From NCBI GenBank assembly GCA_947486575.1, contig CANKUB010000006.1:2455-66454 (forward strand): a DNA stretch of 64,000 bases, in the 5' to 3' direction. The notes beneath the pieces were generated by a model. It was not told the DNA's origin, searched no databases, and saw only the letters and a list, made by a program, of their open reading frames with translations. Position numbers and translations under genes: made by a program. How positions within the stretch are numbered: the first letter of the stretch is position 1; each line of letters begins with the position of its first letter. Source of the DNA: Betaproteobacteria bacterium (GTDB lineage: Bacteria > Pseudomonadota > Gammaproteobacteria > Burkholderiales > SG8-41). This document shows, one piece after another, positions 8,835 to 33,840 of this stretch.

Positions 8835-8860
8835 GGTTGGTTGCTCTCGAATAGCTGTCG

Positions 8861-12458: not shown

Positions 12459-12912
12459 GCACTCCCGATTTCGGGAACAGCATTTGCGTGAATTGGCCGC
12501 GAACCAGAACCGTCCCGGTTTCTTCGTCGCGCGTTGCGAATTCGGTAACCATGTAATGACGTCCGCGCTTTTCGTATTTGTCGATCAGTTTTCCACGCGT
12601 GCGTACGCGCATACCGACGCGTAGTGGTTCCACAAACTCGTACTGCATTTTCGCGTGCAAACCGGCGGGCACGATGTATTTGCTGTGGCGCATGAACAGC
12701 GCCTGATTGCCCATTAAAACCGGATGGGTGATCTTTCCGCCGAAAGGCGAACTTGCGGGCGCGTCATCGCTGCCTTCGAAATACCAAGGGTCGTGATCCT
12801 CCACCGCGAAGGCAAACGTCTCCACGTCTTCAGGCTTGATCAGAAAATCATCGGACATGAACTCCTCGCCCACCGTCACCACTTCATAATTTATTTCTTT
12901 AAATTCAATCAC
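12436..12912 (-). CDS. MaoC N-terminal-like (hotdog fold) dehydratase subunit
   Basis: The 158-aa product contains GGKITHPVLMGNQALF and a hotdog-type C-terminal beta region. It is translationally overlapped with 12018..12458. Confidence 0.7.
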   Translation of the reverse strand: MIEFKEINYEVVTVGEEFMSDDFLIKPEDVETFAFAVEDHDPWYFEGSDDAPASSPFGGKITHPVLMGNQALFMRHSKYIVPAGLHAKMQYEFVEPLRVGMRVRTRGKLIDKYEKRGRHYMVTEFATRDEETGTVLVRGQFTQMLFPKSGVHEHAKNR

Positions 12913-12927
12913 TTATATTTTCCTTAT

Positions 12928-18244: not shown

Positions 18245-20227
18245 ATGTCGTCCGCCAATTCGTCTGCCATCGAATCCGTACTACACGAAAGCCGCGTATT
18301 CCCCCCGAGCGACGCTTTCGTCAAGCAAGCCAACATTTCCGGCATGGCGGCTTATCGAAAACTTTGCGCCGATGCAGAAAAAGATTTTGAAGGCTTCTGG
18401 GCGAATCTCGCACGCACGGAATTGCTATGGCAAAAGCCATTCACCCAGACACTCGACGAATCCCACGCACCGTTTTATAAATGGTTTCACGATGGCGAAC
18501 TGAATGCATCGTATAACTGTCTGGACCGGCATCTGAAAACGCAGCCGGACAAGGTCGCGATCATTTTCGAGGCGGATGACGGCAAGGTCAGCACCATCAC
18601 CTATCGTGAATTGCACCGTCAAGTCTGCGTGGCGGCGAATGGTTTGAAATCTCGCGGCATTAAACTGGGCGATCGCGTGATTGTGTATATGCCGATGTCG
18701 ATTGAAGCCGTGGTGTGCATGCAGGCTTGCGCGCGCATCGGCGCAATTCACTCAGTGGTATTCGGCGGCTTTTCCGCCAAGAGTTTACAGGAACGCATTA
18801 TCGATGCCGGTGCGGTGGCAGTACTGACGGCTGACGGGCAATTTCGCGGTGGGCGTGAGATTCCGTTAAAGCCTGCGGTGGATGAAGGGATAGCACTCGG
18901 CGGTTGCGAATCCATCCACAGCGTCGTGGTTTACAAGCGCACCGGCACCGCCGTTGCGTGGCATGAAAAGCGCGATGTGTGGCTGCATGATCTGGTGCTA
19001 GGCCAATCGGACGTTTGCGAACCCACCTGGGTGAACGCCGAGCATCCGCTGTTTATTCTGTACACCTCCGGCTCTACCGGCAAACCCAAGGGCATCCAGC
19101 ATTCCACCGGCGGCTATTTGCTGTGGACCATTCTGACAATGAAGTGGACCTTCGACTACAAGCCTGCCGACGTGTTCTGGTGTACGGCGGACGTGGGCTG
19201 GGTTACCGGCCACTCATACGTCTGCTACGGCCCGCTGGCGTGCGGCGCGACGGAAATTATTTTCGAAGGCGTGCCGGTTTACCCCGACGCCGGTCGTTTC
19301 TGGAAAATGATTCAAAATCATAAGGTTACGGTATTCTATACCGCACCGACCGCGATTCGCTCACTGATTAAAGCCGGTGGCGATTTACCGAAGCAATATG
19401 ATCTTGCGAGCCTGCGTATCCTCGGCACCGTGGGCGAGCCGATCAATCCTGAAGCCTGGATCTGGTATCACGAAACCGTTGGCGGCAGCCGCTGCCCGAT
19501 TGTGGACACGTGGTGGCAGACCGAAACCGGTGGTCACATGATCACGCCGCTGCCCGGCGCCACGCCGACCAAACCCGGCTCGGCAACCTTCCCGTTGCCC
19601 GGCGTGATCGCCGATATTGTTGATGAAACGGGCCAATCCGTTGGCAAAGGCAAAGGCGGCATACTGGTGATTAAAAAACCCTGGCCGTCGATGCTGCGCA
19701 CGATCTGGGGCGACCCGGAGCGTTTCAAAAAAACCTATTACCCGGAAGATTTTCAGGGCAAGTATTACCTCGCGGGCGATGGCGCAACCTACGATGACGA
19801 AGGCTACATCCGCATCATGGGGCGCATCGACGATGTGTTGAATGTGTCGGGCCATCGCCTCGGCACGATGGAAATCGAATCCGCACTGGTTGCGAACACA
19901 GCGTTAGTGGCAGAAGCCGCTGTGGTGGGCCGCCCCGATGATTTGACCGGTGAAGCGATATGTGCGTTCGTGGTACTAAAAGGCGCGCGGCCTACCGGCG
20001 ACGAAGCGAAAAAAATCATCAAGATATTGCAGGATTGGGTGGGCAAGGAAATCGGCGCGATTGCCAAGCCGCGCGACATACGCTTCGGCGACAACCTGCC
20101 GAAAACGCGCTCCGGCAAAATCATGCGGCGATTGCTGCGTTCCATCGCAAAAGGGGAAGAGATTACGCAGGATGTTTCCACGCTGGAAAATCCGGCGATA
20201 CTCGATCAGCTTAAACAAACCGTGTGA
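18245..20227 (+). CDS. acs: Acetyl-CoA synthetase (AMP-forming)
   Basis: The 660-aa product has the canonical Acs N-terminus, the AMP-binding motif [11 protein letters not shown], and C-terminal [13 protein letters not shown]. Confidence 0.95.
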
Positions 20228-20451: not shown

Positions 20452-23187
20452 ATGCTAACCGGCGGCATCATCGTCGTCGCCTCGTTCGCCTACGTGGCGC
20501 TGCTGTTCGCCATCGCGGCGTACGGCGACAAGCGCGCGGACGCGGGCCGCAGCCTGATTGCCAACCCGTACATCTATGCGCTTTCTCTGGCCGTGTACTG
20601 CACGTCATGGACGTTTTACGGCAGCGTAGGGCGCGCCGCCACCGGAGGTATCGGCTTTCTGGCGATCTACATCGGCCCCACATTGATGGCCGCACTGTGG
20701 TGGTTTGTGCTGATGAAAATGATCCGCGTCAGCAAGGCCAATCGCATCACATCGATTGCCGATTTTGTCGCGTCGCGCTATGGCAAGAGCCAGTTGCTGG
20801 GCGGGCTGGTGACCATCATTGCAGTGGTGGGCATCATTCCCTACATCGCGTTGCAACTGAAAGCCATATCAACCAGCTTTTCCATCATCCTGCATTACCC
20901 CGGCGTTGCCATGCCGGAAAAAACCGGCGCGCAATTATTTGTGGGCGACAACACGTTTTATATCGCGATGATGCTGGCCGCGTTCACCATTCTGTTTGGC
21001 ACGCGCTATCTCGACGCTACGGAGCGTCACGAGGGCCTGGTTGCGGCGATTGCCTTTGAATCCGTAGTGAAGTTAGTCGCGTTCATCGCGGTGGGCGTGT
21101 TCGTGACCTACAGCATGTATGACGGATTCGCAGATATTTTCCAGCGCGCCAGTGCGAATCCGCAATTGAAGTTGCTGATGACGCTCGGTGGCGATTTTGG
21201 CAGCTATACCTCGTGGGCATCACTCACGATGCTGTCGATGTTCGCCATTCTATTTCTGCCACGCCAGTTTCAGGTGGCGGTAGTTGAGAATGTTGATGAG
21301 CGACATTTGAATAAAGCCATCTGGTTGTTCCCGCTGTATTTGCTGGCGATCAATATTTTTGTGCTGCCGATTGCACTCGGCGGCTTGATGCACTTTCCAA
21401 TGGGCGGCGTCGATGCCGATACCTTTGTGCTGACTTTGCCCATTTCACAGCAGCAGGCGTGGATCGCCATGCTGGCATTCGTAGGCGGCTTATCTGCCGC
21501 CACCGGCATGGTCATCGTTGAAACCATCGCGCTGTCCACGATGGTGTGTAACGATCTTGTGATGCCCTTGCTGCTGCGCACGCCAGGCCTGCGATTGGCA
21601 GAGCGGCATGATTTATCGCGCTTGCTGCTGGGCATACGGCGCGGTGCGATTGTGGGCATATTGACCCTCGGCTACGTTTATTTCTTTCTGGCAGGTGAGG
21701 CGTATGCCCTTGTTTCCATTGGATTAATTTCATTCTCTGCGGTAGCGCAATTTGCCCCTGTGATTATCGGCGGGCTGTTCTGGAAAGGCGGCACACGGCT
21801 GGGCGCGATCAGTGGATTGGGCGCGGGCTTTTGCGTGTGGCTGTATACCTTGCTGCTGCCGTCATTTGCAAAATCCGGCTGGATGCCCGTGATGTTTTTG
21901 TCGCAAGGCGCCTGGGGCATCGATCTGCTGAAGCCGCAGCAACTGTTCGGGCTGCAAGGGCTGGATGAAATTTCACACTGTCTGTTCTGGAGCATGCTGG
22001 TCAACATTGGCCTCTACATCACGATCTCGCTGCTACGCCGCCCGGATGCGGCCGAGCACACGCAAGCCACTTTGTTTGTCGACGCGACCGCACCGGCGCG
22101 AGTGAGTGGCTCGCGCTTCTGGCGCGGCACTGCGTCGCTGGATAGTCTGCTGGCATTGCTGGGCCGTTTTTTAGGGCCGGAGCGCGCACGCGAAGCCTTC
22201 ATCACCTACGCCCGAAGGCGCGGTGCGGAGACACTGGCCGCGCTGCCGCCCGACGCCGACACGGTGCATCACGCCGAATCGCTGCTCTCCGGCGCCATCG
22301 GCAGCGCCAGCGCACGTGTGATGATTGCCTCGGTGGTTGAGGAGGAACCGCTCGGCATCGGCGAAGTCATGCACATCATTGACGAAGCCTCGCAAGTGCT
22401 GGCGCACAGCCGCCAGCTTGAACGTCAATCGCGCGAACTCGAAGCCGCCACCAATGAGCTGCGCAGCGCCAATCTGCGGCTGACCGAACTCGATCAACTG
22501 AAAGACGATTTTATTTCCACGGTCACGCACGAGCTGCGCACACCGTTGACCTCGATACGCGCGTTCTCCGAAATCCTGCGTGACAACCCGGCGCTGGATT
22601 TGCCGCAACGTGAAAATTTTCTCGGCATCATCATTCGTGAATCGGAGCGGCTTACACGTCTGATCAATCAGGTGCTTGATCTTGCCAAACTCGAATCCGG
22701 CGGTGGTGAATGGCAAACCATCCCGTTTGATTTACGCGATGTCATTGATGAATCGCTGCATGCCACCAGCCAATTGTTCAAGGACAATGGGGTTAGCGTG
22801 GAAACCACTTTGCCCCCAACCGCACCAGAATTGCTAGCCGACCGTGATCGCGTGATGCAAGTCATGCTCAATCTCTTGTCGAATGCCGCAAAATTCTGTA
22901 CGCCGCAGCAAGGCCGCGTACACGTAACCCTGCACCAAGAAGTAACTGCATTGCGTGTTGATGTCGCCGACAACGGCATCGGCATCCACATTGAAGATCA
23001 AGCCGTCATCTTCGACAAATTCCGTCAGGCCGGCGACACGCTCACTGAAAAACCCAAAGGCAGCGGATTGGGTTTAGCCATCTCGCGACAGATCGTTGAA
23101 CACCTCGGCGGCAAACTATGGGTCACCAGCGTAGCGGGTGCAGGCGCTACTTTTTCGTTCACCTTACCCTTGCCGCAGCAGCGATGA
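20452..23187 (+). CDS. Sensor histidine kinase with an N-terminal sodium:solute-symporter (SLC5/SSF) domain (CbrA/CrbS-like architecture, no receiver domain)
   Basis: The 911-aa product has about 540 aa of multi-TM SSF-like sequence. This is followed by a STAC-like linker (SLDSLLALLGRFLGPERAREAF...AESLLSGAIGSASARVMIA), the H-box FISTVTHELRTPLTSI, N-box LLSNAAKF, G1 DNGIGI and G2 GSGLGL. Confidence 0.9.
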   Translation: MLTGGIIVVASFAYVALLFAIAAYGDKRADAGRSLIANPYIYALSLAVYCTSWTFYGSVGRAATGGIGFLAIYIGPTLMAALWWFVLMKMIRVSKANRITSIADFVASRYGKSQLLGGLVTIIAVVGIIPYIALQLKAISTSFSIILHYPGVAMPEKTGAQLFVGDNTFYIAMMLAAFTILFGTRYLDATERHEGLVAAIAFESVVKLVAFIAVGVFVTYSMYDGFADIFQRASANPQLKLLMTLGGDFGSYTSWASLTMLSMFAILFLPRQFQVAVVENVDERHLNKAIWLFPLYLLAINIFVLPIALGGLMHFPMGGVDADTFVLTLPISQQQAWIAMLAFVGGLSAATGMVIVETIALSTMVCNDLVMPLLLRTPGLRLAERHDLSRLLLGIRRGAIVGILTLGYVYFFLAGEAYALVSIGLISFSAVAQFAPVIIGGLFWKGGTRLGAISGLGAGFCVWLYTLLLPSFAKSGWMPVMFLSQGAWGIDLLKPQQLFGLQGLDEISHCLFWSMLVNIGLYITISLLRRPDAAEHTQATLFVDATAPARVSGSRFWRGTASLDSLLALLGRFLGPERAREAFITYARRRGAETLAALPPDADTVHHAESLLSGAIGSASARVMIASVVEEEPLGIGEVMHIIDEASQVLAHSRQLERQSRELEAATNELRSANLRLTELDQLKDDFISTVTHELRTPLTSIRAFSEILRDNPALDLPQRENFLGIIIRESERLTRLINQVLDLAKLESGGGEWQTIPFDLRDVIDESLHATSQLFKDNGVSVETTLPPTAPELLADRDRVMQVMLNLLSNAAKFCTPQQGRVHVTLHQEVTALRVDVADNGIGIHIEDQAVIFDKFRQAGDTLTEKPKGSGLGLAISRQIVEHLGGKLWVTSVAGAGATFSFTLPLPQQR

Positions 23188-23555
23188 GCCAACGCATACT
23201 GATCGCCGAAGACGATCATAATATATTGATTTCAATAGACTTTTTATTAAAGGCCGCGGGCTATACCGTATTGACCGCCAGCGACGGCGTGAGCGCTTGG
23301 GCAGCACTCGAAGATCAACGTCCGGATTTAGTCGTGCTCGACATTATGCTGCCCGCGCTGGATGGCTACGAATTGTGCAAACGCGTGCGCGCCACACCTG
23401 CGCTGCAAGCGATAAAAGTGGTGATGTTAAGCGCGCGCGGGCGCGAAGCCGAAATTGAAAAGGGTTTGCAATTGGGCGCTGACGCCTACCTGCGAAAACC
23501 GTTTGGCACGCGCGAATTGCTGGATACCATTGCGCGCTTGCTGGCAGCAGCTTGA
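23184..23555 (+). CDS. Single-domain (REC-only, CheY-like) response regulator
   Basis: Its ATG overlaps the kinase stop as ATGA. The 123-aa product contains IAEDD, DLVVLDIMLP (phospho-acceptor Asp) and YLRKPF, with no output domain. Confidence 0.9.
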   Translation: MSQRILIAEDDHNILISIDFLLKAAGYTVLTASDGVSAWAALEDQRPDLVVLDIMLPALDGYELCKRVRATPALQAIKVVMLSARGREAEIEKGLQLGADAYLRKPFGTRELLDTIARLLAAA

Positions 23556-23607
23556 TACTGTTACCGCGCCGGATTCCCATGCAGTCAATTCAGTTTTTAC
23601 AGCAGCC

Positions 23608-24597
23608 ATGAAACCCATGATAGTCGCGTTACTGTTGGCCGTATTTTCGGCAGCCGCCACGCCCGCGCTGTCCGCGCAGCCTGTGAACGATACGGCTGTC
23701 AGCTATCCCTCAAAACCAGTACGCTGGGTCGTGGGTTTTGCGCCCGGCGCCTCCAACGATATTGTCGCCCGCACCATCAGCGCGCGCCTCGGCGAAGCTT
23801 GGGGCCAGCAGTTCATCATTGACAACCGCACCGGCGCAGCAGGCATGATCGGTGGCGAGATCGTCGCGCGCTCCGTGCCGGACGGCTACACGCTGCTGCT
23901 CGCAACCGGCGGGCCGAACACCATTGCCCCGCTGCTCACGCGCAAGCCCGTGTATCGCGTGGAGGATTTCGACTACGTGTCGGTGATGGCCTATACGCCG
24001 CTCATCATCGCGGTGACACCGTCGTTTGCACCGAAAACACCGCGCGACCTGGTAGAACATCTGAAGGCAAATCCCGGCAAAACAAACTGGGGCTCGGCGG
24101 GCGTCAACAGCAGCCCGCACGTGGGGTTTGCAAGCTTTACGCACGCCACTGGAACGCGCGCGACGCATGTGCCATATAAGGGCGCAGCGGTGGCACTCAT
24201 TGATGTGGCCAGCGGACAGATCGACGCGATACACACCACCGCAGCATCCGCCGAAGCGGCAGTTCGCAGCAATCGCGTGCGCGTGATCGCGGTGGCGGGG
24301 CCAAAGCGCGTGCCGGTAATTCCAGATGTGCCGACGCTCGTCGAATCCGGCATAAAAGGCGGCGACTCGCTGGTGTGGTTTGGCATGGCCGTGCCGCTGA
24401 AGACACCGCCAGTCATCGTGCGCAAGCTCAACGCGGGCGTCACCAATGCCCTCGCCATTCCGGAAGTTCAGCGTCGCCTGACCGATCTGGGCATGGAGAT
24501 CGTCGGTGGCTCACCCGAAGCAGCGGCAAAATTCGTGCGCGACGAAGCTGGACGGATACGTAGCCTGATCAAGGCCGGGGTGCTGAAGCAGGAGTAG
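23608..24597 (+). CDS. Bug/TctC-family periplasmic solute-binding protein
   Basis: The track ORF is trimmed to ATG 23608 (MKPMIVALLLAVFSAAATPALSA). Motifs YPSKPVRWVVGFAPGASND, IIDNRTGAAG and PDGYT are present. Confidence 0.9.
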   Translation: MKPMIVALLLAVFSAAATPALSAQPVNDTAVSYPSKPVRWVVGFAPGASNDIVARTISARLGEAWGQQFIIDNRTGAAGMIGGEIVARSVPDGYTLLLATGGPNTIAPLLTRKPVYRVEDFDYVSVMAYTPLIIAVTPSFAPKTPRDLVEHLKANPGKTNWGSAGVNSSPHVGFASFTHATGTRATHVPYKGAAVALIDVASGQIDAIHTTAASAEAAVRSNRVRVIAVAGPKRVPVIPDVPTLVESGIKGGDSLVWFGMAVPLKTPPVIVRKLNAGVTNALAIPEVQRRLTDLGMEIVGGSPEAAAKFVRDEAGRIRSLIKAGVLKQE

Positions 24598-24795
24598 CGA
24601 CGATCAGGTATAAGCATGCAATGCGTTTTATCAGGTTTCGCGTTCCGCCATTCATGGACGATCAAAATGATGAAAACCATAGTATCTAAAAACCGGGTGA
24701 CACTGGACTTTTTGCGGCGCCACTAGCGGTGCAAATCAGGGTTTTTGCGCTGCCGTAACGAACAGCGAATAACGAAATTAGCTGAAAGGGCGAAC

Positions 24796-26190
24796 ATGAA
24801 TAAAGTCGTAACCTCGGCCGAGCAGTCCATCGCGGACATGCCTGACGGCGCTACCGTTGCGTTGTCGGGCTTTGGTCTTGGTCACCGGTTTCCCAACACG
24901 CTGTTGCAGGCGCTGCGCCACCAAGGCACAAGGCAACTCACGCTGGTGTGCAATTCCCTGGGCAACGCGGGCGAGAAAGGCCAGTTGCTGGTGGAAAACA
25001 AGCAGGTCAAAAAGATCCTCGCGTCGTTCTCCGTGCGCCCCGGCACGCGCACACCTGCGGAAACGCAGATCATCGCGGGCGAGTTGGAGGTGGAGCTGAT
25101 TCCGCAGGGCATTCTGGTCGAACGCTGCCGCGCGGGCGGCGCGGGAATTCCGGCCTTCTATTCGCCGACCGCTGCCGACACCGAGCTGGCTATAGGCAAG
25201 GATATGCGCTACTTCAACGGCAAGGCGCATGTGCTGGAACACGCCATACACCTGGATTACGCACTGCTGAGCGGCTATCGCGCCGACCGCGCGGGCAATG
25301 TGCAATTTCGCGGCGGCGCGCGCAATTTCAATCCGTCGTTCGCCAAGGCCGCGCGCGTGGCAATTATCGAAGTGGATGAAATCGTCGAGACTGGCGAGAT
25401 ACCGTCTGAGTTGATCGATCTGCCCGGCATCTTCATCGACCGCGTGGTGCAGAACACGCATTTCATCGACGCGCGCAAACTGTCGCGCAGCGGCAAGCGT
25501 GCGGCGGATACCGCGCGCAGTTATCTCGGCAAGCCGGGCCTGACCCGTGCCGCCATCTCCCGCAACGCCGCGAAAATCGTGCGCAACGACAGTTACGTCA
25601 ATCTCGGCACCGGCATTCCCACCGAGGTTTCCAATTACCTTGAGGGCCGCGGCGTGTGGCTGCACGCGGAGAACGGCGTGCTCGGTTACGGCGGCACTGT
25701 CACCGGCGACGCCATCGACCCCGACGTGTTCAACGCTGGCGGCCAGTTTGTGCAACCCATCGCGGGCACGTCCTACTTCGACAGCGTTACCTCCTTCGAG
25801 ATGGCGCGCGGCGGCCATATCGACACCGTTATCCTTGGCGCTTATGAAGTCGATCAGGATGGCAACGTCGCCAACTGGAGTCTCGCTGACGCCAAACGCG
25901 GCGGCATCGGCGGCGCGATGGATTTGGTGGCAGGCGATGCCGAATTGATTATCGTGCTGGAGCACCGCGACAGCAAAGATCGACCCAAGCTGCGCAAGCA
26001 TTGCACTTTTCCGCTGACGGCACGTCGGCGCGTCAACTGGGTGGTCACTGATCTCGCCGTGCTGCACTGGGTGGACGGGCGTTTTGTGCTGGAGGCCGTG
26101 GCGCCCGGATTCACTTCCGAAGACATTGTTGCGCTGACGGAAATGGAATTTGCCGTAGCGCCCACACTGGCGATCATGGAAACAGCCTGA
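24796..26190 (+). CDS. 3-oxoacid CoA-transferase family protein with fused A and B subunits
   Basis: It starts MNKVVTSAEQSIADMPDGATVALSGFG (subunit A). The second half carries the subunit-B catalytic motif HAENGVLGYG (E-N-G). Confidence 0.85.
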   Translation: MNKVVTSAEQSIADMPDGATVALSGFGLGHRFPNTLLQALRHQGTRQLTLVCNSLGNAGEKGQLLVENKQVKKILASFSVRPGTRTPAETQIIAGELEVELIPQGILVERCRAGGAGIPAFYSPTAADTELAIGKDMRYFNGKAHVLEHAIHLDYALLSGYRADRAGNVQFRGGARNFNPSFAKAARVAIIEVDEIVETGEIPSELIDLPGIFIDRVVQNTHFIDARKLSRSGKRAADTARSYLGKPGLTRAAISRNAAKIVRNDSYVNLGTGIPTEVSNYLEGRGVWLHAENGVLGYGGTVTGDAIDPDVFNAGGQFVQPIAGTSYFDSVTSFEMARGGHIDTVILGAYEVDQDGNVANWSLADAKRGGIGGAMDLVAGDAELIIVLEHRDSKDRPKLRKHCTFPLTARRRVNWVVTDLAVLHWVDGRFVLEAVAPGFTSEDIVALTEMEFAVAPTLAIMETA

Positions 26191-26299
26191 TCTCACTGTG
26201 GGAATAATGCAGTTAAATCACCAGGAGCAGTCGATGAAACGATCACCTTTGATTCTGAGCGTGCCGATGCTGTGCGCCCGTCTGTCGCTGCATGCACTG

Positions 26300-26652
26300 G
26301 CCGTGATCGGGCTGCTGCCATCCGGCAGGGTGCGCCCGCTTGCGGTGACCAGCGCGCAGCGCGTGCCTCAACTGCCCACAGTGCCCACGACAAGCGAAGC
26401 GGGATTTCCCGCCGTGCGCTCGGAGGGCTGGTACGCGTTTGTGGCGCCGGTAGCAACACCGACGGAAACGCTAAGCCGGGCGCGCCAGTTGATCACGGCG
26501 GCGCTGCGTGCGCCGGATACGCGCGAACGCCTCAATAGCATCGCCGCGATGCCCGTCGGCAACACGCCCGATGAACTGCGTGTCTTTTGGCGCGCTGAGA
26601 GCCTTTTAAGTGGGGCGAGTTAATCAAGGCGATTGGCCTCAAGCCTGAATAG
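26300..26652 (+). pseudogene. Bug/TctC-family gene remnant (C-terminal third only, frameshifted)
   Basis: The ORF 26198..26623 encodes only LPSGRVRPLAVTSAQRVPQLPTVPTTSEAGFP...WYAFVAPVATP...PDELRVF, which is the Bug C-terminal lobe. The usual ending KWGELIKAIGLKPE-stop is in a different frame at 26608-26652. No signal peptide or N-lobe is present. Confidence 0.75.
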
Positions 26653-26761
26653 GCACAGCCGCAGGGTCAATAGGCATTCCAATCTGTAACTTATTGATTT
26701 TATTGAAATTATTTTGATCAAATCATGAGCGCATACAATACAAGTCAGGAGGCATCGCACG

Positions 26762-27910
26762 ATGAGTATCAAAGGCAAAGCCTATATCGGGGGAATTTAC
26801 GAACACCCCTCGCGCAAGATCGACAACAAGTCGATTGCAGAGCTTCACACGGAATGTGCCAAGGGTGCGCTGGACGACGCGGGTCTGACGTTCAAGGATG
26901 TTGACGCCTATTTCTGTTCCGGCGATGTGCCCGGCTTGGGCGCACTCAGCATGCCCGACTACATGGGGCTGACCGTCAAGCGACAGGACTCCACCAATAC
27001 CGGCGGTTCCTCTTACCTGTTTCACGTCGGCCATGCCGCCGAGGCGATTGCCGCCGGTAAATGCAAAGTGGTTCTCATCACTTGCGCGGGCTTCGGTCGC
27101 CGTGGCACAGCGGTGCGTGAACGCGGCGGACCCGATGCGCCGTTTGAATATCCCTATGGCCCGGTGACGGTGAATCTGTATGCCATGGCGGCGCGGCGCC
27201 ACATGCACGAGTACGGCACCACCAGCGAGCAACTGGCGTGGGTCAAGGTTTCGGCCTCGCACCACGCCCAGCACAATCCCCATGCCTTTCTGAAAAAGGT
27301 TGTGACGGTTGAAGACGTGCTCAACTCGCCGATGATTGCCGATCCACTGCACCGCATGGATTGCTGTGTGGTAACCGACAGCGGCGGCGCGGTGCTGGTG
27401 GTGGCGCCGGAAATCGCGCGACAACTGAAAACACCCAGGGTCAAACTGATCGGTCAGGGCGAATCGTCCAAAGGCCAGATGGGTGGCCATGTCGATCTGA
27501 CGTACACCGGCGCGGTGCGCTCCGGCCCCGTCGCTTTCGCCGAAGCGGGCGTCACACCCGCCGACATCAAATATGCCTCCATCTACGACAGCTTTACCAT
27601 CACCGTGGTGGAAACTATCGAAGACCTTGGGTTCTGCAAAAAGGGCGAAGGCGGCAAGTTTGTGTCCGATGGCAACCTGATTTCCGGTGTGGGCAAGCTG
27701 CCCTTCAATACCGACGGCGGCGGCATGTGCAACAACCATCCGGTCAATCGCGGCGGCATTACCAAAATTATCGAGGCAGTGCGGCAACTGCGCGGTGAGG
27801 CTCACCCGAAAGTACAAGTTAAAAATTGCGATATCGCGCTTGCTCACGGCACCGGCGGTTCACTCGGCACGCGGCACAGCAGCGCAACCATGATCATGGA
27901 AAGGGAGTAA
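26762..27910 (+). CDS. Thiolase-like (SCP-x/Ltp-type) protein lacking the nucleophilic Cys
   Basis: The 382-aa product has the family motifs PLHRMDCCVVTDSGGA, YDSFT, NTDGGGM and AHGTGGS. The segment aligning with the thiolase C-x-S-G nucleophile loop reads TNTGGSSYL. Confidence 0.8.
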   Translation: MSIKGKAYIGGIYEHPSRKIDNKSIAELHTECAKGALDDAGLTFKDVDAYFCSGDVPGLGALSMPDYMGLTVKRQDSTNTGGSSYLFHVGHAAEAIAAGKCKVVLITCAGFGRRGTAVRERGGPDAPFEYPYGPVTVNLYAMAARRHMHEYGTTSEQLAWVKVSASHHAQHNPHAFLKKVVTVEDVLNSPMIADPLHRMDCCVVTDSGGAVLVVAPEIARQLKTPRVKLIGQGESSKGQMGGHVDLTYTGAVRSGPVAFAEAGVTPADIKYASIYDSFTITVVETIEDLGFCKKGEGGKFVSDGNLISGVGKLPFNTDGGGMCNNHPVNRGGITKIIEAVRQLRGEAHPKVQVKNCDIALAHGTGGSLGTRHSSATMIMERE

Positions 27911-27915
27911 TACGA

Positions 27916-28320
27916 ATGGCTACTGCATATCAGGACAGAAAAATCCCGGTCGCGCCGCTCAACGCGGGAGATGCGCCGTTTTTTGAAGGTGCTGCAGCGG
28001 GCAAGCTGATGGTGAAGTACTGCAACGACTGCAAGCAATACCACCACTATCCACGGCCGATGTGCCCGTTCTGCTACTCGACCCACACCGAGTGGCGGCA
28101 GGCCAGGGGCACGGGCGTGGTCTACAGTTTCAGCATTTCGCGCGCAACAGGGCCGATTCCCTACGCGATAGCGTACGTGACGCTGGACGAAGGCCCGACC
28201 ATCATGACCAACATCGTTGAGACTGATCTCGACACCATCCAGTGCGGACAAAAGGTGACGGTGGTGTTCAAGCCCACCGAAGATCCCAAACTTGCGGTAC
28301 CCATGTTCAAGCCCGCCTAG
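27916..28320 (+). CDS. DUF35-type Zn-ribbon/OB-fold protein
   Basis: The 134-aa product starts at ATG 27916. It has the four-Cys ribbon CNDCKQYHHYPRPMCPFC followed by an OB-like region (GVVYSFSI...YVTLDEGPTIMTNI). It sits between two thiolase-like genes. Confidence 0.8.
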   Translation: MATAYQDRKIPVAPLNAGDAPFFEGAAAGKLMVKYCNDCKQYHHYPRPMCPFCYSTHTEWRQARGTGVVYSFSISRATGPIPYAIAYVTLDEGPTIMTNIVETDLDTIQCGQKVTVVFKPTEDPKLAVPMFKPA

Positions 28321-28337
28321 ATCAAGAGGATTTCACG

Positions 28338-29492
28338 GTGACCATCAAAGGCAAAGCCTATATCGGCGGGATTTTCGAGCACCCCGCCCGCAAGCTCGGC
28401 AACGATATTTCGCAGGCCGAGCTGCATGCACAGTGCTCAAAGGGCGCGCTGGAAGACGCTGGTCTTTCGTTCAAGGATGTTGACGGTTATTTCGGCGCGG
28501 GTGACATCCCCGGCGGACTTCTGAGCATGGTGGATTATCTAAACCTGACTGTAAGGCATCTCGATCAGACTTACACCGGCGGTTCTTCGTACCTTTACCT
28601 CGTAGCACACGCTGCCGAGGCCATCGCGGCAGGCAAATGCAGCGTCGCCCTTATTTCGCTGGCTGATTTCGGCCGTCGCGGCACGGCAGTACGCGACCGT
28701 GGCGAGGGCATAGCCGAGCAACCTTTTGAATATCCTTTCGGCCCCGTTACGGTGAACCTGTACGCCATGGCGGCGCAGCGCCACATGTATCAATATGGCA
28801 CCACCAGCGAGCAACTCGCGCAGGTCAAGGTGGCGGCTTCGCACCATGCGCAGTGGAACCCCAACGCCGTAATCCGGAAAGTCTTGACCACCGAAGACGT
28901 ACTCAATTCACCGATGGTCGCCGACCCGCTGCACCGCATGGACTGCTGTGTGGTGACCGATGGCGGCGGTGCGGTCGTCGTAGTTTCGCCGGAAATCGCC
29001 AGACAATTGAAAAAACCCAAGGTCAAGCTGATTGGCGTCGGCGAATCATCCAAAGACCAGATGGGCGGCAAGATAGACCTGACCTACACCGGCGCAGTGC
29101 GCTCCGGCCCCATCGCTTTCGCCGAAGCGGGCGTCACACCCGCCGACATCAAATACGCCTCCATCTACGACAGCTTCACCATCACCGTGGTGGAAACTAT
29201 CGAGGACCTGGGTTTCTGCAAAAAGGGCGAGGGCGGCAAGTTTGTGTGCGACGGCAACTTGGTCTCCGGCGTGGGCAAGCTGCCCTTCAACACCGACGGC
29301 GGCGGCATGTGCAACAACCATCCGGGCAACAAAGGCGGCATCACCAAAGTCATCGAGGCCGTGCGCCAGTTGCGCGGCGAGTCCCATCCCAAAGTGCAGG
29401 TCAAGAACTGCGACATCGCGCTGGCCCACGGCACCGGCGGCTCACTTGGTACGCGCCATGGCAGTGCTACGCTGATTATGGAACGTGAATAG
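28338..29492 (+). CDS. Thiolase-like (SCP-x/Ltp-type) protein lacking the nucleophilic Cys; tandem paralog of 26762..27910
   Basis: The GTG start at 28338 is preceded by AAGAGGA (VTIKGKAYIGGIFEHP, compared with MSIKGKAYIGGIYEHP in the paralog). It has the same motif set and also carries TYTGGSSYL at the nucleophile loop. Confidence 0.8.
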   Translation: MTIKGKAYIGGIFEHPARKLGNDISQAELHAQCSKGALEDAGLSFKDVDGYFGAGDIPGGLLSMVDYLNLTVRHLDQTYTGGSSYLYLVAHAAEAIAAGKCSVALISLADFGRRGTAVRDRGEGIAEQPFEYPFGPVTVNLYAMAAQRHMYQYGTTSEQLAQVKVAASHHAQWNPNAVIRKVLTTEDVLNSPMVADPLHRMDCCVVTDGGGAVVVVSPEIARQLKKPKVKLIGVGESSKDQMGGKIDLTYTGAVRSGPIAFAEAGVTPADIKYASIYDSFTITVVETIEDLGFCKKGEGGKFVCDGNLVSGVGKLPFNTDGGGMCNNHPGNKGGITKVIEAVRQLRGESHPKVQVKNCDIALAHGTGGSLGTRHGSATLIMERE

Positions 29493-29508
29493 CCTCCGTG
29501 GACCGGTC

Positions 29509-30516
29509 ATGAGCGTCTTGCAGCGCGCAGTTAGCATCCTGAACCGTTACGTCATTGCCGTCTGCCTCATTGGCTTGACCGCCACCACGGTGGCAGCCGC
29601 TACGGCTGAACGCGAGCAATATCCAAACCGCTCGATTCGCCTGGTAAATCCCTTCGCGCCGGGCGGTATCGTTGACACCTCGGTGCGCGCAGTCCTGCCG
29701 CATGTGGTGCAAGCCTGGGGGCAGCAGGTTGTTGTCGATAATCGGCCGGGTGCAGGCACCAATATTGGCACGGAAATCGTGGTGCGGGCGCCACCCGATG
29801 GCTACACGTTGTTGGCGACGACGGGTTCGCTCTCGACCAACCCGAACTTCTACCCCAAGCTCTCGTTCAAGCCCACACGCGATCTCGCGCCCGTCATTCT
29901 GCTTGCGCAAACTTCTGGCGCGCTGGCCATTCACACGGGTGTGTCAGCGAAAACTTTGCCAGAGTTCATTGCGCTGGCACGCACACAACCGGGTCAGCTC
30001 ACAGTGGCGTCGGCGGGTACCGGTACCTCCACGCATTTATCCATCGAATTACTGAAATCGCTGGCGAAGATTGACGTCGTGCATGTGCCATTCAAAGGTG
30101 GTGGTGGGGGCATCGTCGGCGTTATGGGCGGGCAACTTGCTGGCGTAATGACGGTACTCACGCTGGTGTTGCCGCATCATAACGCCGGCAAGGTGCGCAT
30201 CCTGGCGGTGACGACAACTACGCGCAGCCCATTGGCGGGCGACATCCCCACCTTTGCCGAGGCGGGTGTTCCCGGCTATGAGGCGGCTGCCTGGGTGGGC
30301 CTGTTCGCCCCGCGTGCCACGCCCCAGCCCGTACTCCGAAAATGGAATGCCGAGATTAACCGGATTATCCGCGAGCCTGAAGTGATAGAGCGTTTCAAGG
30401 CGACTGGCCTGATCGCGCGTGGCGGCAGCGAACAGGAATTGAGCGCCTACTTCCTGAAGGAAACTGAACGCTGGGCGGCTGTGATCAAGGCCGCTAATAT
30501 TGCGATCAACCCCTAG
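29509..30516 (+). CDS. Bug/TctC-family periplasmic solute-binding protein
   Basis: It starts MSVLQRAVSILNRYVIAVCLIGLTATTVAAATA. Motifs YPNRSIRLVNPFAPGGIVD, VVDNRPGAGT and PDGYT are present. The ATG at 29509 is preferred over the GTG at 29485. Confidence 0.88.
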   Translation: MSVLQRAVSILNRYVIAVCLIGLTATTVAAATAEREQYPNRSIRLVNPFAPGGIVDTSVRAVLPHVVQAWGQQVVVDNRPGAGTNIGTEIVVRAPPDGYTLLATTGSLSTNPNFYPKLSFKPTRDLAPVILLAQTSGALAIHTGVSAKTLPEFIALARTQPGQLTVASAGTGTSTHLSIELLKSLAKIDVVHVPFKGGGGGIVGVMGGQLAGVMTVLTLVLPHHNAGKVRILAVTTTTRSPLAGDIPTFAEAGVPGYEAAAWVGLFAPRATPQPVLRKWNAEINRIIREPEVIERFKATGLIARGGSEQELSAYFLKETERWAAVIKAANIAINP

Positions 30517-30542
30517 TCGATACCATGCGATACCACTGCGAG

Positions 30543-31211
30543 CTAAGCCGCATGATCAATCACATACCCCCGCCCATAATGCGTGCGCACCTCCACCCCT
30601 GAACCGGCGAGTTTTTTGCGCACGCGATGGATATAAACTTCAATCGCGTTGTGGCTGACTTCTTTGTCGTAGTTGTATAGCTGCTCCACCAACTGTTCTT
30701 TACTCACCACACGGCCAAATCGCCGCAGCAGAATTTCCAGCACACCGGCTTCGTGCAGCGACATTGGCAGCGGTTTGCCGGCCACACTGGCCACACGGCC
30801 CACGGTATCAAAGATCAATTCCCCGTATTGCAGGGTGGGCGTTGCTACGCCAGTGCCACGCCGCAGCAATGCGCGCACGCGCGCCTGTAACTCACTCAGG
30901 CTGAAGGGCTTAACCAGATAATCATCAGCACCCAGATCCAGTCCGGCGACTTTTTCCTCGGGCTGCTCTCGGCCCGATAAAATCAACACGGGCAGTGAGG
31001 TATTGCGTTTGCGCAGCCGCCGCAGTACCTCAAGACCATCAATTTTGGGCAATCCCAGATCAAGTATCAGCAGCGCAAAATTATCGCTCTTGAGCGCCTC
31101 ATCCGCAGCAAGCCCGTGCGCCACATGGTCCACCACATAGCCCGCCTGCGTCAGCGAAAACCGCAGCGCTTCTGACAACGCGGTGTCATCCTCTGCAATC
31201 AGTATGCGCAT
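30543..31211 (-). CDS. OmpR/PhoB-family response regulator (REC plus winged helix); no adjacent kinase
   Basis: It starts MRILIAEDD and contains LLILDLGLPKIDG and YLVKPF. The C-terminal wHTH reads NAIEVYIHRVRKKL...GRGY. Confidence 0.92.
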   Translation of the reverse strand: MRILIAEDDTALSEALRFSLTQAGYVVDHVAHGLAADEALKSDNFALLILDLGLPKIDGLEVLRRLRKRNTSLPVLILSGREQPEEKVAGLDLGADDYLVKPFSLSELQARVRALLRRGTGVATPTLQYGELIFDTVGRVASVAGKPLPMSLHEAGVLEILLRRFGRVVSKEQLVEQLYNYDKEVSHNAIEVYIHRVRKKLAGSGVEVRTHYGRGYVIDHAA

Positions 31212-31501
31212 GCTCCCCTCCAGAAATTCCTTTCAAAATTGCTGTGCCGCAACAAATTCAGCACTTGGCGACATCTTGTAACTTGTTGTTTTTATTATAT
31301 TTTTACCACATTCCGCACGTTCGTCAGTATGCGGCATTCACATAAAAGTTCAGGTTTCTGTAAGTAACTTCCATTACGATCATTGTGCTCCAAGCGGGCG
31401 TCTGCAAACACGGCACCCGTTTGATCAAGGCTTCTAATAACCAATACTGTAACGGGTCTTGAGCATTTGATAAATCAGTTCATTCAACCAAGGAGGGTTC
31501 C

Positions 31502-31768
31502 ATGCAACCTAGCGTAAAACACCAGGAATACTGGCGAAAAAATCTGGTCATCACCGCAATATTGCTGGCAATCTGGTTTGTTGTCACGTTTATCGAGGGC
31601 TGGTACGCACGTGAGTTGAACAGCATGACGTTCCTCGGCTTTCCACTGGGCTTTTACATGTCCGCACAGGGATCGCTGGCAATTTATGTCGTGATTATCG
31701 GCGTCTATGCCCTCTACATGAAAAAACTCGACAAAGAATTCGGCGTTGATGAAGGAGACCTCGAATGA
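31502..31768 (+). CDS. DUF4212-type small membrane subunit of a sodium:solute symporter
   Basis: The 88-aa, two-TM product is preceded by AAGGAGG. Its stop overlaps the start of the SSS permease as ATGA. Confidence 0.8.
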   Translation: MQPSVKHQEYWRKNLVITAILLAIWFVVTFIEGWYARELNSMTFLGFPLGFYMSAQGSLAIYVVIIGVYALYMKKLDKEFGVDEGDLE

Positions 31769-33840
31769 GCCAAGCCCAAACCCACAGCGCGTTTAATTCG
31801 CAGCTGAAAAAATATTACACCTTTTACACCGGCGGCTTTATCGCGTTTTTGATTTTCCTCGCGATTGCCGAGCAGATGGGCATGTCACGGCAAATGATCG
31901 GTTACATTTTCCTCGCTGCCACCATCGGCCTGTACGCGGGCATTGGCATCATGAGCCGTACAGCCGATGTCTCCGAGTACTACGTTGCGGGCCGCCGCGT
32001 ACCGGCGTTCTTTAACGGCATGGCAACGGGTGCTGACTGGATGAGTGCCGCGTCGTTCATTGGCATGGCGGGCACGCTGTACCTCTCAGGCTTTGACGGA
32101 CTTGCCTTCGTGATGGGCTGGACCGGCGGCTACTGTCTGGTGGCATTCCTTCTGGCACCGTATCTGCGCAAATTCGGCCAGTTCACCATCCCGGATTTTC
32201 TGGGTGCGCGTTATGGCGGCAATATCATCCGCTCAATCGGCGTGATCGCAGCGATAACCTGTTCGTTTGTTTACGTGGTGGCGCAGATCTACGGTGTAGG
32301 CCTGATTACCAGCCGATTCACGGGCTTGGAGTTCGGCGTCGGCGTGTATGTCGGTCTCGCGGGCATTCTGGTTTGCTCCATGCTCGGCGGCATGAAAGCG
32401 GTCACCTGGACACAAGTTGCGCAATACATCATTCTGATCATTGCGTATCTCACGCCGGTGGTGTGGCTCGGCCTCAAGCACACGGGCATCCCCGTGCCGC
32501 AAGTGGCCTACGGCCCGGTGCTGCAAAAAGTGGGCGACCTTGAAAAGAAGATCACCGCTGATCCCAAAGAGATTGAAGTTCGCAATATCTTCAAGGAACG
32601 TGCTGCCACCGCCAACGCCGGCTTGAAAGACCCCGCCAAAGGCTACGCCGACGGCAAGGCCAAGCTCGAAAAAGCAGTGGCTGATGCCAAAGCAATCGAA
32701 CCCGCCGATGCAGCCAAAGTAGCTGCAGCCGAAAAAGCGCTGGGAGGCTATTACAAAGACGAAGCGGCAGCCAAAGCACAGTGGAACAAAGACAAGGGCC
32801 TCGGCGCACGCGCAGCCCCGCCACGGCCGCATGCTGAGCCTTACCCCGGCAAGGATGAAGATGCACGCTTCACGGCGAAGCTCAACTTCCTCGGTATTGT
32901 GTTCTGCATGATGTTCGGCACAGCCGCCCTGCCCCACATTTTGATGCGCTATTACACGACACCGAGCGTGCAGCAGGCGCGCGTATCGGTATTCTGGTCG
33001 CTGTTCTTCATCTTCCTGCTGTATTTCACTGCGCCTTGCCTTGCGGTGCTGGCGAAGTTTGACGTGTACACCAATCTGGTCGGCAGTAGTTTTGCATCGC
33101 TGCCCGCATGGGCTGCGGCTTGGGCCAAGGTTGATCCGAGCCTGCTCAACATCACCGACATCAACAAAGACGGCATCGTGCAACTCGCCGAAATCGTGAT
33201 CGGCGGCGACTTGATCGTGCTGGCAACGCCAGAAATCGCGGGCTTGCCATATGTGGTTTCCGGCCTGGTTGCTGCTGGTGGTCTGGCTGCGGCCCTCTCT
33301 ACCGCTGACGGCTTGCTGCTGACGATTGCCAATGCGCTGTCGCACGATCTTTACTACAAAATGATCGACCCGCAAGCCACCACCAAAACGCGCGTAACGA
33401 TTTCCAAAGGGTTGTTGGTGGTTGTCGCGGGTGTTGCTGCCTACGTCACATCACTCAAACCCGGCGACATTCTGTTCCTGGTGGGTGCTGCGTTCTCGCT
33501 GGCGGCATCGGCATTCTTTCCACCGCTGGTGCTCGGCGTATTCTGGAAGCGCGCCAACAAGTGGGGTGCCATTGTTGGCATGCTGGCCGGATTGGGCGTA
33601 TGCCTGTATTACATGATGCGCACCTACCCGTTCTTCACCAATATGGGCGTGCCGAAGATGGATTTGTGGTTCGGGCTTAACCCGATTTCGGCTGGCGTGT
33701 TTGGCTTGCCGGTAGGCTTGCTCACCATCTTTATCGTGAGCCTGCTGACCGCACCGCCCAATGAAGAGACGCAGAAGCTGGTCGAGCACGTGCGTTACCC
33801 CAATCTGGTGGGTGACACGTATCAATCGCAGGCAAGCTGA
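31765..33840 (+). CDS. Sodium:solute symporter family permease (large subunit paired with DUF4212; ActP-like cation/carboxylate symporter)
   Basis: The 691-aa product is multi-TM SSF sequence interrupted by an Ala/Lys-rich soluble insert of about 110 aa (VLQKVGDLEKKITADPKEIE...PYPGKDEDARF). Confidence 0.88.
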   Translation: MSQAQTHSAFNSQLKKYYTFYTGGFIAFLIFLAIAEQMGMSRQMIGYIFLAATIGLYAGIGIMSRTADVSEYYVAGRRVPAFFNGMATGADWMSAASFIGMAGTLYLSGFDGLAFVMGWTGGYCLVAFLLAPYLRKFGQFTIPDFLGARYGGNIIRSIGVIAAITCSFVYVVAQIYGVGLITSRFTGLEFGVGVYVGLAGILVCSMLGGMKAVTWTQVAQYIILIIAYLTPVVWLGLKHTGIPVPQVAYGPVLQKVGDLEKKITADPKEIEVRNIFKERAATANAGLKDPAKGYADGKAKLEKAVADAKAIEPADAAKVAAAEKALGGYYKDEAAAKAQWNKDKGLGARAAPPRPHAEPYPGKDEDARFTAKLNFLGIVFCMMFGTAALPHILMRYYTTPSVQQARVSVFWSLFFIFLLYFTAPCLAVLAKFDVYTNLVGSSFASLPAWAAAWAKVDPSLLNITDINKDGIVQLAEIVIGGDLIVLATPEIAGLPYVVSGLVAAGGLAAALSTADGLLLTIANALSHDLYYKMIDPQATTKTRVTISKGLLVVVAGVAAYVTSLKPGDILFLVGAAFSLAASAFFPPLVLGVFWKRANKWGAIVGMLAGLGVCLYYMMRTYPFFTNMGVPKMDLWFGLNPISAGVFGLPVGLLTIFIVSLLTAPPNEETQKLVEHVRYPNLVGDTYQSQAS

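Follow-up and report, generated by a model that had tools for sequence, protein, structure and literature searches.

A DUF35-associated pair of thiolase-fold proteins lacking the nucleophilic cysteine, a possible acyl-CoA retro-aldolase for non-steroid organic acids

The closest described systems in which a thiolase-fold protein acts as an aldolase are the complexes TcLtp2-ChsH2 (PDB 6OK1), a retro-aldolase of the steroid C3 side chain with an orthologue in M. tuberculosis, and CtSal-CtShy (9MYR), an aldolase acting on bile acids at their C5 side chain (PMC12329534). TbSLP from Trypanosoma brucei (5AB4-5AB7), which has a Y-D-C-F motif, has also been proposed to be an aldolase (PMC12329534). 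For non-steroid substrates, it has been reported that ipfD, annotated as a thiolase/acyltransferase, is needed for growth of Sphingomonadaceae on ibuprofen, and that IpfD/IpfE, described as a retro-aldolase, form propionyl-CoA and a catechol from a non-steroid CoA ester, as judged from genetic and metabolite evidence only (PMC9195938). Here we analyse a stretch of 64,000 nucleotides from a Betaproteobacteria bacterium (the window; assembly GCA_947486575.1, contig CANKUB010000006.1, positions 2,455 to 66,454 of the forward strand), in which two paralogous thiolase-fold genes, T1 and T2, lie on either side of a gene for a stand-alone DUF35 protein, D. Our analysis suggests, with about even confidence, that T1 and T2 together with D (T-D) represent a DUF35-dependent beta-hydroxyacyl-CoA retro-aldolase of the Ltp2/Sal type acting on non-steroid organic acids.

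All three genes are intact (Table 1). T1 and D are separated by 5 bp (27911-27915) and D and T2 by 17 bp (28321-28337), in exact agreement with the original prediction of two paralogous thiolase-like genes around a DUF35 gene, and a purine-rich ribosome-binding site is present before each gene. The fused CoA-transferase upstream and the Bug receptor downstream, described in the same prediction, were likewise recovered by Pfam at the places given in Table 1. T1 and T2 are 81% identical to each other and match Thiolase_C_1 (PF22691) in Pfam (1.5e-49 and 2.2e-48, respectively). Both also match the NCBIfam model NF006010/PRK08142, 'thiolase domain-containing protein', over its full length (profile positions 1-388 of 388) with 695.1 bits for T1 and 667.5 bits for T2, the curated cut-off being 462 bits. 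At the level of the fold they belong to the thiolase superfamily, in its SCP2/DUF35-associated branch. The ratio of non-synonymous to synonymous substitution rates (dN/dS) against orthologues is 0.036-0.049 for T1 and 0.040-0.046 for T2; the values across T1, T2 and D span 0.036-0.049, and T1 against T2 gives 0.11. All three genes are under strong purifying selection and are functional. A megablast search of plasmids with the module returned weak partial matches only, annotated as "thiolase domain-containing protein", and a promoter and terminator scan of 23000-31500 revealed nothing exceeding shuffled expectation.

Table 1. Coordinates of the T1-D-T2 genes and of neighbouring features in the window
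Feature	Coordinates	Strand	Description
T1, thiolase-fold protein	26762-27910	+	ATG start, 382 aa, intact
D, stand-alone DUF35 protein	27916-28320	+	ATG start, 134 aa, intact
T2, thiolase-fold paralogue of T1	28338-29492	+	GTG start, 384 aa, intact
Fused A/B class I (3-oxoacid, SCOT-like) CoA-transferase	24793-26190	+	Pfam CoA_trans 1.4e-77, two stretches
Bug/TctC receptor remnant	26198-26623	+	141 aa; TctC profile positions 163-247 only
Bug/TctC periplasmic receptor	29485-30516	+	TctC 2.4e-62; start uncertain, GTG 29485 or ATG 29509
Acetate-CoA ligase	18245-20227		TIGR02188, 984 bits
Sensor kinase (911 aa) and stand-alone receiver	20452-23555		
VC_2705-family Na/solute symporter	31502-33840		two subunits

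Active-site residues were assigned from a MAFFT alignment of T1, T2, family members and nine solved homologues, the sequences of which were rebuilt from HMMER alignments. The alignment contains no gaps around the nucleophile helix and exactly recovers the published numbering of CtSal (G89, Y302, C304, Q347, Q352 and G391) and TcLtp2 (Y294, H296 and Y344); these residue numbers and the corresponding roles were taken from PMC12329534. The loop in question reads T80-G81-G82-S83-S84 in T1 and T2 alike, and Gly82 of both proteins occupies the column of the nucleophilic Cys (helix N-alpha-3, CxS motif) of 7YVY, 6ESQ, BbsB and the TbSCP2-thiolase. The earlier claim that both proteins lack the nucleophilic Cys is thus upheld by alignment to structural homologues. 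At the position of the HDCF motif T1 and T2 have Y-D-S-F. Its tyrosine (Tyr275 in T1, Tyr277 in T2) lies in a column that holds His in each of the five homologues of the Cys or Ser type, and in both known aldolases a Tyr serves as catalytic base (Tyr294 in Ltp2 and Tyr302 in Sal; PMC12329534). The serine (Ser277 in T1, Ser279 in T2) lies in the column of Sal Cys304, which is also Cys in 6ESQ. The histidine of the GHP loop is kept within N-N-H-P (His326 in T1, His328 in T2), and Gly366 of T1 aligns with Gly391 of CtSal, the oxyanion glycine. The alignment to thiolase and Ltp2 structures, as asked for in the original prediction, gives Gly for the nucleophilic Cys, Tyr for the His and Ser for the Cys of HDCF, with the GHP histidine present. 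The further claim that the C-terminal G-T-G-G region has no Cys is true (A-H-G-T-G-G in T1 and T2) but not diagnostic, since the aligned DUF35-associated and SCP2-type thiolases are also Cys-free in this segment; for this reason it is the HDCF motif that serves as the informative second position.

Taken over four columns, the signature is C-H-A-H in the thiolases 7YVY and BbsB as well as in the TbSCP2-thiolase 4BIA (C337A mutant chain), C-H-C-H in the thiolase 6ESQ, G-Y-C-Q in Sal, G-Y-H-Y in Ltp2, and G-Y-S-H in T1, T2 and 4U4E. Thus, T1 and T2 possess one of the three residues of a canonical thiolase (the GHP His, with neither the nucleophilic Cys nor the His of HDCF/NEAF). Of the features of the Ltp2/Sal aldolases they possess the Gly in place of Cys, the base Tyr and the adjacent DUF35 gene, but not the general acid. 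Among the solved structures, 4YZO (ST0096 of Sulfolobus tokodaii), named 'putative acyl-CoA acyltransferase', is a further non-canonical protein in the DUF35-associated branch of thiolases: its nucleophilic-Cys column is occupied by Ser, and H-D-M-A replaces HDCF.

Members of NF006010/PRK08142, which are ~70-75% identical, are found in Burkholderiales, Bradyrhizobium, Acetobacteraceae, Caulobacteraceae, Neobacillus, Terriglobia and Rokubacteria/Methylomirabilota. The nucleophile column is Gly in all 199 family sequences, G81 is likewise invariant, the aldolase-type Tyr is present in 197 of them, and the motifs Y-D-S-F and C-N-N-H-P are conserved at ~98-99% (GHP His ~99%). Directly after Gly82, 166 of the same sequences have Ser, 30 have Cys (the Bradyrhizobium clade) and 2 have Ala (Acidobacteria); because the residue varies in this way, no nucleophile is located there, and a shifted nucleophile at Ser83/Cys83 was rejected, the position being S, C or A in an otherwise invariant family. 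An exhaustive HMMER search of 1.84 billion representatives clustered at 50% identity retrieved 961 proteins at E <= 1e-30. Among the best 150 of these, 91 representatives are full-length, none of which has Cys in the nucleophile column and nearly all of which are G-Y-x-x (GYSH 20, GYAH 17, GYCH 14, GY[SC]Q 6, GYPH 3 and GY[CA]Y 4). A characterised member exists only for the signature types of Sal (GYCQ) and Ltp2 (GYHY). The G-Y-S-H signature is ~99% conserved across NF006010, which has been named but of which no member is characterised; literature searches found no paper on the NF006010/PRK08142 subfamily and neither a paper nor biochemical data on the structure 4U4E, in line with the earlier remark that the system was not recognised as a characterised one.

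In a neighbour-joining tree, which is rough, without bootstrap and biased in its sampling to relatives of T1, T1 and T2 fall in a clade made up entirely of Gly/Tyr proteins, with Sal and Ltp2 nested inside and the Cys/His thiolases outside. The steroid aldolases Sal and Ltp2 are the only studied members of this clade. Ranking of the solved structures by phmmer and Foldseek places 4U4E first and the Sal aldolase second, followed closely by the aldolase Ltp2 and by 7YVY, a thiolase of P. furiosus, the order of which is swapped between the two programs (Foldseek puts Ltp2 first), and then by BbsB. Foldseek gives a probability of 1.00 and a TM score of ~0.7 to 4U4E, 9MYR, 6OK1, 7YVY and 7PXP, the query being a mediocre AlphaFold2 model (pLDDT 67.6, pTM 0.75) built on a shallow alignment of 75-95% identical sequences.

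The second component of the module, D, matches both DUF35 domains in Pfam, with 38.8 bits for zf-ChsH2 (PF12172; 8e-10, gathering score 23.2 bits) and 62.5 bits for OB_ChsH2_C (PF01796; 3.5e-17, gathering score 27.1 bits). Its zinc ribbon of the form C-x2-C...C-x2-C is made up of Cys36, Cys39, Cys50 and Cys53 (C-N-D-C at 36 and C-P-F-C at 50). The nearest chains of D in the PDB are the partners of aldolases, namely the ChsH2 DUF35 of the Ltp2 complex (6OK1_B, 3.7e-19) and 9MYR_B (7e-12); the DUF35 partners of Cys thiolases score 3e-7 and 1e-5 (BbsA 1e-5). Co-occurrence was examined by tblastn in 80 species loci, each fetched with up to 8 kb on either side and denoted here, like the loci of close relatives, by L numbers. 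D directly follows T in 78 of the 80 loci and the remaining two stop at a contig edge, so that the genomic co-occurrence asked after in the original prediction is clear. D is presumed to be an obligate partner of both T1 and T2.

What follows on the reaction of T-D, on the parts played by its residues, on its stoichiometry and on its substrate is inferred. T1 and T2 would each, most likely, form a dimer flanked by DUF35 subunits, by analogy to the solved D-T-T-D aldolase complexes. The overall reaction would be retro-aldol cleavage of a beta-hydroxyacyl-CoA to acetyl-CoA (or propionyl-CoA) and a carbonyl compound. An organic acid would be captured by a Bug receptor and converted to its thioester by the upstream SCOT-like CoA-transferase; this thioester would then be cleaved by T-D, with Tyr275 (Tyr277 in T2) taking the proton of the beta-hydroxyl, and with His326/328 and the backbone of Gly366 stabilising or protonating the acyl-CoA enolate. 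In this way a minimal module of receptor, SCOT-like transferase and T-D could turn an imported hydroxy-acid into acetyl-CoA and a ketone or oxo-acid. With products of this kind no aldehyde dehydrogenase would be needed; and a tertiary hydroxyl, should the substrate have one, would not be open to dehydrogenation, which would account for a lyase being required. T1 and T2 probably handle two related substrates, since they differ mainly in N-terminal loops of the kind that shape the acyl pocket in Sal.

The original prediction also proposed that two paralogues and one DUF35 protein make up a special complex. This proposal finds no support when close relatives are considered. In L086 and L087 (T1 95% identical to that of the window) the order is CoA-transferase, full-length Bug, T1, D, T2, Bug; in L088 (88%) it is ECH (enoyl-CoA hydratase), T1, D, T2, D; and in L001 (87%) it is T1, D, Bug, Bug, T2, D. 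Across the four genomes the T1 proteins and the T2 proteins separate into two groups of orthologues, with identities of 87-95% for T1-T1, 88-95% for T2-T2 and 78-84% for T1-T2, and the two D copies within a relative's genome are 99% identical (the copies in L088 are at 11154-11558 and 12756-13160). In the 80 species-representative loci a second T copy was never found within 8 kb, so that the unit is a single T-D pair. A designed 2:1 complex as the meaning of T-D-T was therefore rejected on the T-D-T-D layouts of the relatives and their near-identical D copies. As judged from these layouts, the ancestral arrangement is a tandem T-D-T-D with homogenised D genes, from which the lineage of the window lost the redundant second D; T-D-T is a derived loss because relatives hold T-D-T-D with 99% identical D copies, and T1 and T2 share one D because the ancestral second copy was redundant.

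The nucleotide identity between T1 and T2 is a mosaic, being 60-66% at nucleotides 181-360 and 89-93% at nucleotides 721-990. Together with the 99% identical D copies, this mosaic suggests gene conversion in a tandem array, affecting the 3' half of the T genes. Sixteen differences are fixed between the T1 and T2 groups, mostly within residues 20-125, the others being S207G, A215S, V328G and R330K. Alignment with CtSal suggests that part of residues 20-125 matches the loops by which Sal shapes its acyl pocket. In L001, among the closest relatives that carry T-D, a conserved 457-aa open reading frame (8320-9693, minus strand) is transcribed divergently from T1, with equivalents in L002 and L003 and none in the window; it has no Pfam or NCBIfam match.

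Of the genes surrounding T1-D-T2 in the window, the CoA-transferase scores 207 bits against pcaI_scoA (above the cut-off of 128.5) and 217 bits against pcaJ_scoB (below the cut-off of 243.6) in NCBIfam, matches fused SCOT structures with E = 1e-92 to 1e-94, and has the catalytic Glu motif (S/A)ENG of the B domain as H-A-E-N-G, read by eye. It probably makes the acyl-CoA substrate. Of the Bug gene that follows, which the original prediction does not mention, only the C-terminal third is left as a pseudogene remnant; its C-terminal ~100 residues show 86% identity to residues 214-314 of a full-length TctC located at the same position in L086, ~575 bp having been lost. A TctC gene is also present in L086 at the position of the downstream Bug, which in the window is probably co-transcribed with T1-D-T2, and synteny with L086 runs from the CoA-transferase through the downstream Bug (24778-30512) at ~83% nucleotide identity. 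Expansion of Bug/TctC is typical of Alcaligenaceae/Burkholderiales, and in the 64-kb window tblastn finds 19 Bug receptor matches, that is ~1 TctC gene per 3.5 kb. Because of this number, the adjacency of Bug to the module is near chance expectation here and carries little weight; the proposed link to a tripartite tricarboxylate transporter (TTT) receptor is weak to this extent, but the synteny of T2 and Bug is kept in L086. The acetate-CoA ligase, the sensor kinase with its receiver and the symporter look like a separate acetate-utilisation (acetate-switch-like) set. They were rejected as members of the module, having no synteny with it in L086. No steroid genes and no ring dioxygenase are present in the window.

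In other genomes T-D is found in several settings. By tblastn matches over the whole of each fetched locus, the 80 species loci contain a short-chain dehydrogenase/reductase (SDR) in 32 cases, a MaoC hydratase in 26, a fused indolepyruvate-ferredoxin-oxidoreductase-like (IOR-like) protein in 20, Bug in 15, an AMP-forming ligase in 11, ECH in 10, an acyl-CoA dehydrogenase (ACAD) in 9, a class III CoA-transferase in 8, a class I CoA-transferase in 4 and a canonical thiolase in 3. The hydratases within 8 kb of T (MaoC 26/80, ECH 10/80) parallel Shy-Sal and ChsH-Ltp2; ECH lies immediately upstream of T1 in L088 and likewise in L001-L003. When 83 same-strand neighbours lacking annotation were pooled and scanned with Pfam, no additional recurrent family emerged. 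In Bradyrhizobium and allies (L034, L038, L043-L046, L049-L051, L055, L058-L061, L063, L066, L067, L069, L070 and L074) a conserved cluster consists of the IOR-like protein (1163 aa), T, D, MaoC, SDR, a DHDPS-like protein and NUDIX, and T carries Cys after the nucleophile-column Gly (T-G-G-C-S-Y). Among the Neobacillus/Bacillus loci (L021, L029 and L033), Neobacillus has two PTE-family genes, T, D, an S15-family hydrolase, MBL and split class I CoA-transferase A and B genes. In Acidobacteria (L064 and L081) T and D are followed by an MFS anion transporter, with split class I CoA-transferase A/B genes beside T-D in L081, and the layout in Rokubacteria is D-2-hydroxyacid dehydrogenase, T, D. The T-D proteins of Firmicutes and Acidobacteria are ~70% identical to those of the window, and the same minimal logic is seen in three phyla.

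Several of these observations weigh against the retro-aldolase assignment. T1 and T2 lack the general acid that either characterised aldolase uses, having Ser in the column of Cys304 and His in that of Tyr344, and the Sal variant C304S, with the same residue as T1 and T2 at this place, is inactive (PMC12329534). The GHP histidine, kept in both proteins, is a thiolase trait, and the AlphaFold2 model is too poor in the active-site loops (pLDDT <50) to bear a geometric argument. No hydratase belongs to the module in the window, where the closest ECH (6573-7361) is ~20 kb off, and the adjoining CoA-transferase is of the 3-oxoacid type, the products of which are thiolase substrates. Elsewhere T-D sits with SDR, ACAD and ECH/MaoC, where a thiolase would be expected, and a motif search, made without a positive control, found no aldehyde dehydrogenase motif in 1.33 Mb of neighbourhoods. 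The analogy to Ltp2-ChsH2 drawn in the original prediction thus holds for Gly82, the catalytic Tyr and the aldolase partners nearest to D, but not for the general acid or the thiolase-like context. An alternative that draws on such points is a Cys-independent retro-Claisen reaction, in which a 3-oxoacyl-CoA, coming from the SCOT-like transferase here and from SDR dehydrogenases in other genomes, would be cleaved to acetyl-CoA and an acid without a covalent acyl-enzyme. Most plausibly, water activated by Tyr275/His326 would make T-D a beta-ketoacyl-CoA hydrolase. Class I 3-oxoacid CoA-transferase genes adjoining T-D in the window, L086, Neobacillus and Acidobacteria speak for it, as do the SDR genes (32/80), full ACAD-ECH-SDR sets (e.g. 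L054) and the rarity of a canonical thiolase (3/80), the retention of the thiolase GHP His and the oxyanion Gly366, and the outcome of the aldehyde dehydrogenase motif search, again one without a positive control. However, the two residues by which the known aldolases differ from thiolases are both aldolase-like in T1 and T2, a thioester would be wasted by hydrolysis, and we know of no thiolase-fold enzyme that performs Cys-independent retro-Claisen cleavage, which counts against it. Since thiolases work by a ping-pong mechanism and possess only one pantetheine tunnel, direct thiolysis by a second CoA is sterically unlikely. We consider the retro-Claisen alternative rather unlikely, though a serious rival. 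A broader form of it, in which T-D would be a widespread Cys-independent replacement of thiolase (a non-covalent, probably hydrolytic retro-Claisen enzyme) in pathways resembling beta-oxidation in many phyla and T1, T2 and a single DUF35 would form a mixed complex with two acyl-pocket specificities, appears similarly doubtful.

The remaining explanations are less probable still. Decarboxylation of a malonyl-type (2-carboxyacyl) CoA ester, derived via the CoA-transferase from a dicarboxylate imported through Bug, would use the thioester oxyanion hole and no nucleophile. It would suit a minimal module of transporter receptor, CoA-transferase and T-D with an acetate-CoA ligase and an acetate-type symporter nearby, and the Cys-less TbSLP weakly decarboxylates malonyl-CoA (PMC12329534). 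But the rate of TbSLP is very low (0.005 per s) and CtSal shows no such activity (PMC12329534), the ligase and symporter genes have no synteny to the module in L086, and the hydratase, SDR and ACAD neighbours elsewhere would be left unexplained, which makes a decarboxylase quite improbable. The loss of the canonical catalytic Cys, the side-by-side retention of the paralogues in four genomes and the scaffolding of the archaeal thiolase/HMG-CoA synthase complex by DUF35 (discussed in PMC12329534) could instead point to T1 and/or T2 as non-catalytic proteins, serving as scaffold or presenting the substrate, or to a T1-T2 heterodimer with one dead subunit. This is very unlikely, given that dN/dS is ~0.04 and that a single T-D pair stands alone in 80 species with no constant third partner. 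Both paralogues, moreover, hold an identical and fully conserved set of putative catalytic residues, because of which neither is regarded as degenerate. Finally, the name acetyl-CoA C-acetyltransferase, which JGI gives to close homologues, would imply an ordinary thiolase with another nucleophile, and Cys201, Cys202 and Cys323 are indeed nearly invariant among the 199 family sequences. The D-C-C segment is, however, present in the aldolase Ltp2 as well as in 4U4E (BbsB has C-C in the same columns), and it aligns to the segment of thiolases that lines the pantetheine tunnel, a role that we take over from the Zoogloea thiolase. In the column of Cys323, BbsB, Sal, 4U4E and the archaeal thiolases have Ser, Ala or Gly. 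With Gly in the nucleophile column of 199 of 199 members, thiolysis through one of these cysteines is the least credible of the explanations considered.

The gene pair of the window is in itself common and annotated. What it draws attention to is a mismatch running through the family between the name of a thiolase, an active site resembling that of aldolases and a gene context resembling that of thiolases. Thousands of family genes are named "acetyl-CoA acetyltransferase" or "thiolase domain-containing protein", and none of them is able to act as a textbook thiolase. The G-Y-S-H subtype differs from the two steroid aldolases in being ~70% identical across phyla, in its constant pairing with a stand-alone DUF35 gene and in its settings, which are small modules for the use of organic acids (T-D with a transporter and a CoA-transferase or ligase) as well as clusters resembling beta-oxidation. 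Once established, its reaction would correct a large block of annotation, would give acyl-CoA metabolism either a C-C lyase for non-steroid substrates or a retro-Claisen mechanism of a new kind, and would provide a compact biocatalyst for forming or breaking C-C bonds. Two paralogues that share one D also constitute a natural experiment on acyl-pocket loops and specificity.

Comparison with known systems places T1 and T2 nearest to the 'putative thiolase' 4U4E from Sphaerobacter thermophilus, a structural-genomics entry without an assigned function and the closest solved relative (E = 5.5e-87, 42% identity), with which they share the G-Y-S-H signature and the H-G-T-G-G motif; 4U4E differs in lying outside the tight NF006010 group and in having Ser at the place of Cys323. 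They resemble the DUF35-associated Cys thiolases in fold, in partnering with DUF35 and in conserving the GHP histidine as well as the G-G oxyanion loop near the C-terminus, but those enzymes possess a nucleophilic Cys and H-D-x-F where T1 and T2 have Gly and Y-D-S-F. TbSLP is likewise a thiolase fold without the thiolase cysteines (Foldseek E = 1.5e-20). Unlike T1 and T2, it is eukaryotic and carries the Sal-type Cys in its motif, and we know of no DUF35 partner for it. IpfD and IpfE, which we take to be an SCPx-like protein and a DUF35 protein, respectively, are likened to T-D by description and not by sequence, and their substrate is the product of a ring dioxygenase, an enzyme that the window lacks. 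CtSal is the second-best match of T1 and T2 in both sequence and structure. Its Gly89, Tyr302 and Gly391 correspond to Gly82, Tyr275 and Gly366, and Sal forms a DUF35-flanked dimer; in contrast, its essential acid Cys304 is replaced by Ser, Gln352 by His and Gln347 by Gly in T1 and T2, and Sal operons include a hydratase and an aldehyde dehydrogenase, neither of which is part of the window module. TcLtp2 differs from T1 and T2 in its acid Tyr344 (His in T1 and T2), in His296 (Ser) and in its steroid substrate, and ChsH2 has its DUF35 domain fused to a MaoC hydratase, unlike the separate 134-aa D. The likeness to this complex nevertheless extends over both components: a thiolase fold (Foldseek 1.7e-25, 33% identity) with Gly at the nucleophile position, a Tyr base in Y-D-x-F and the D-C-C segment, and a DUF35 partner, which is obligate in Ltp2 and which, as the DUF35 of ChsH2, is the best match of D in the PDB.

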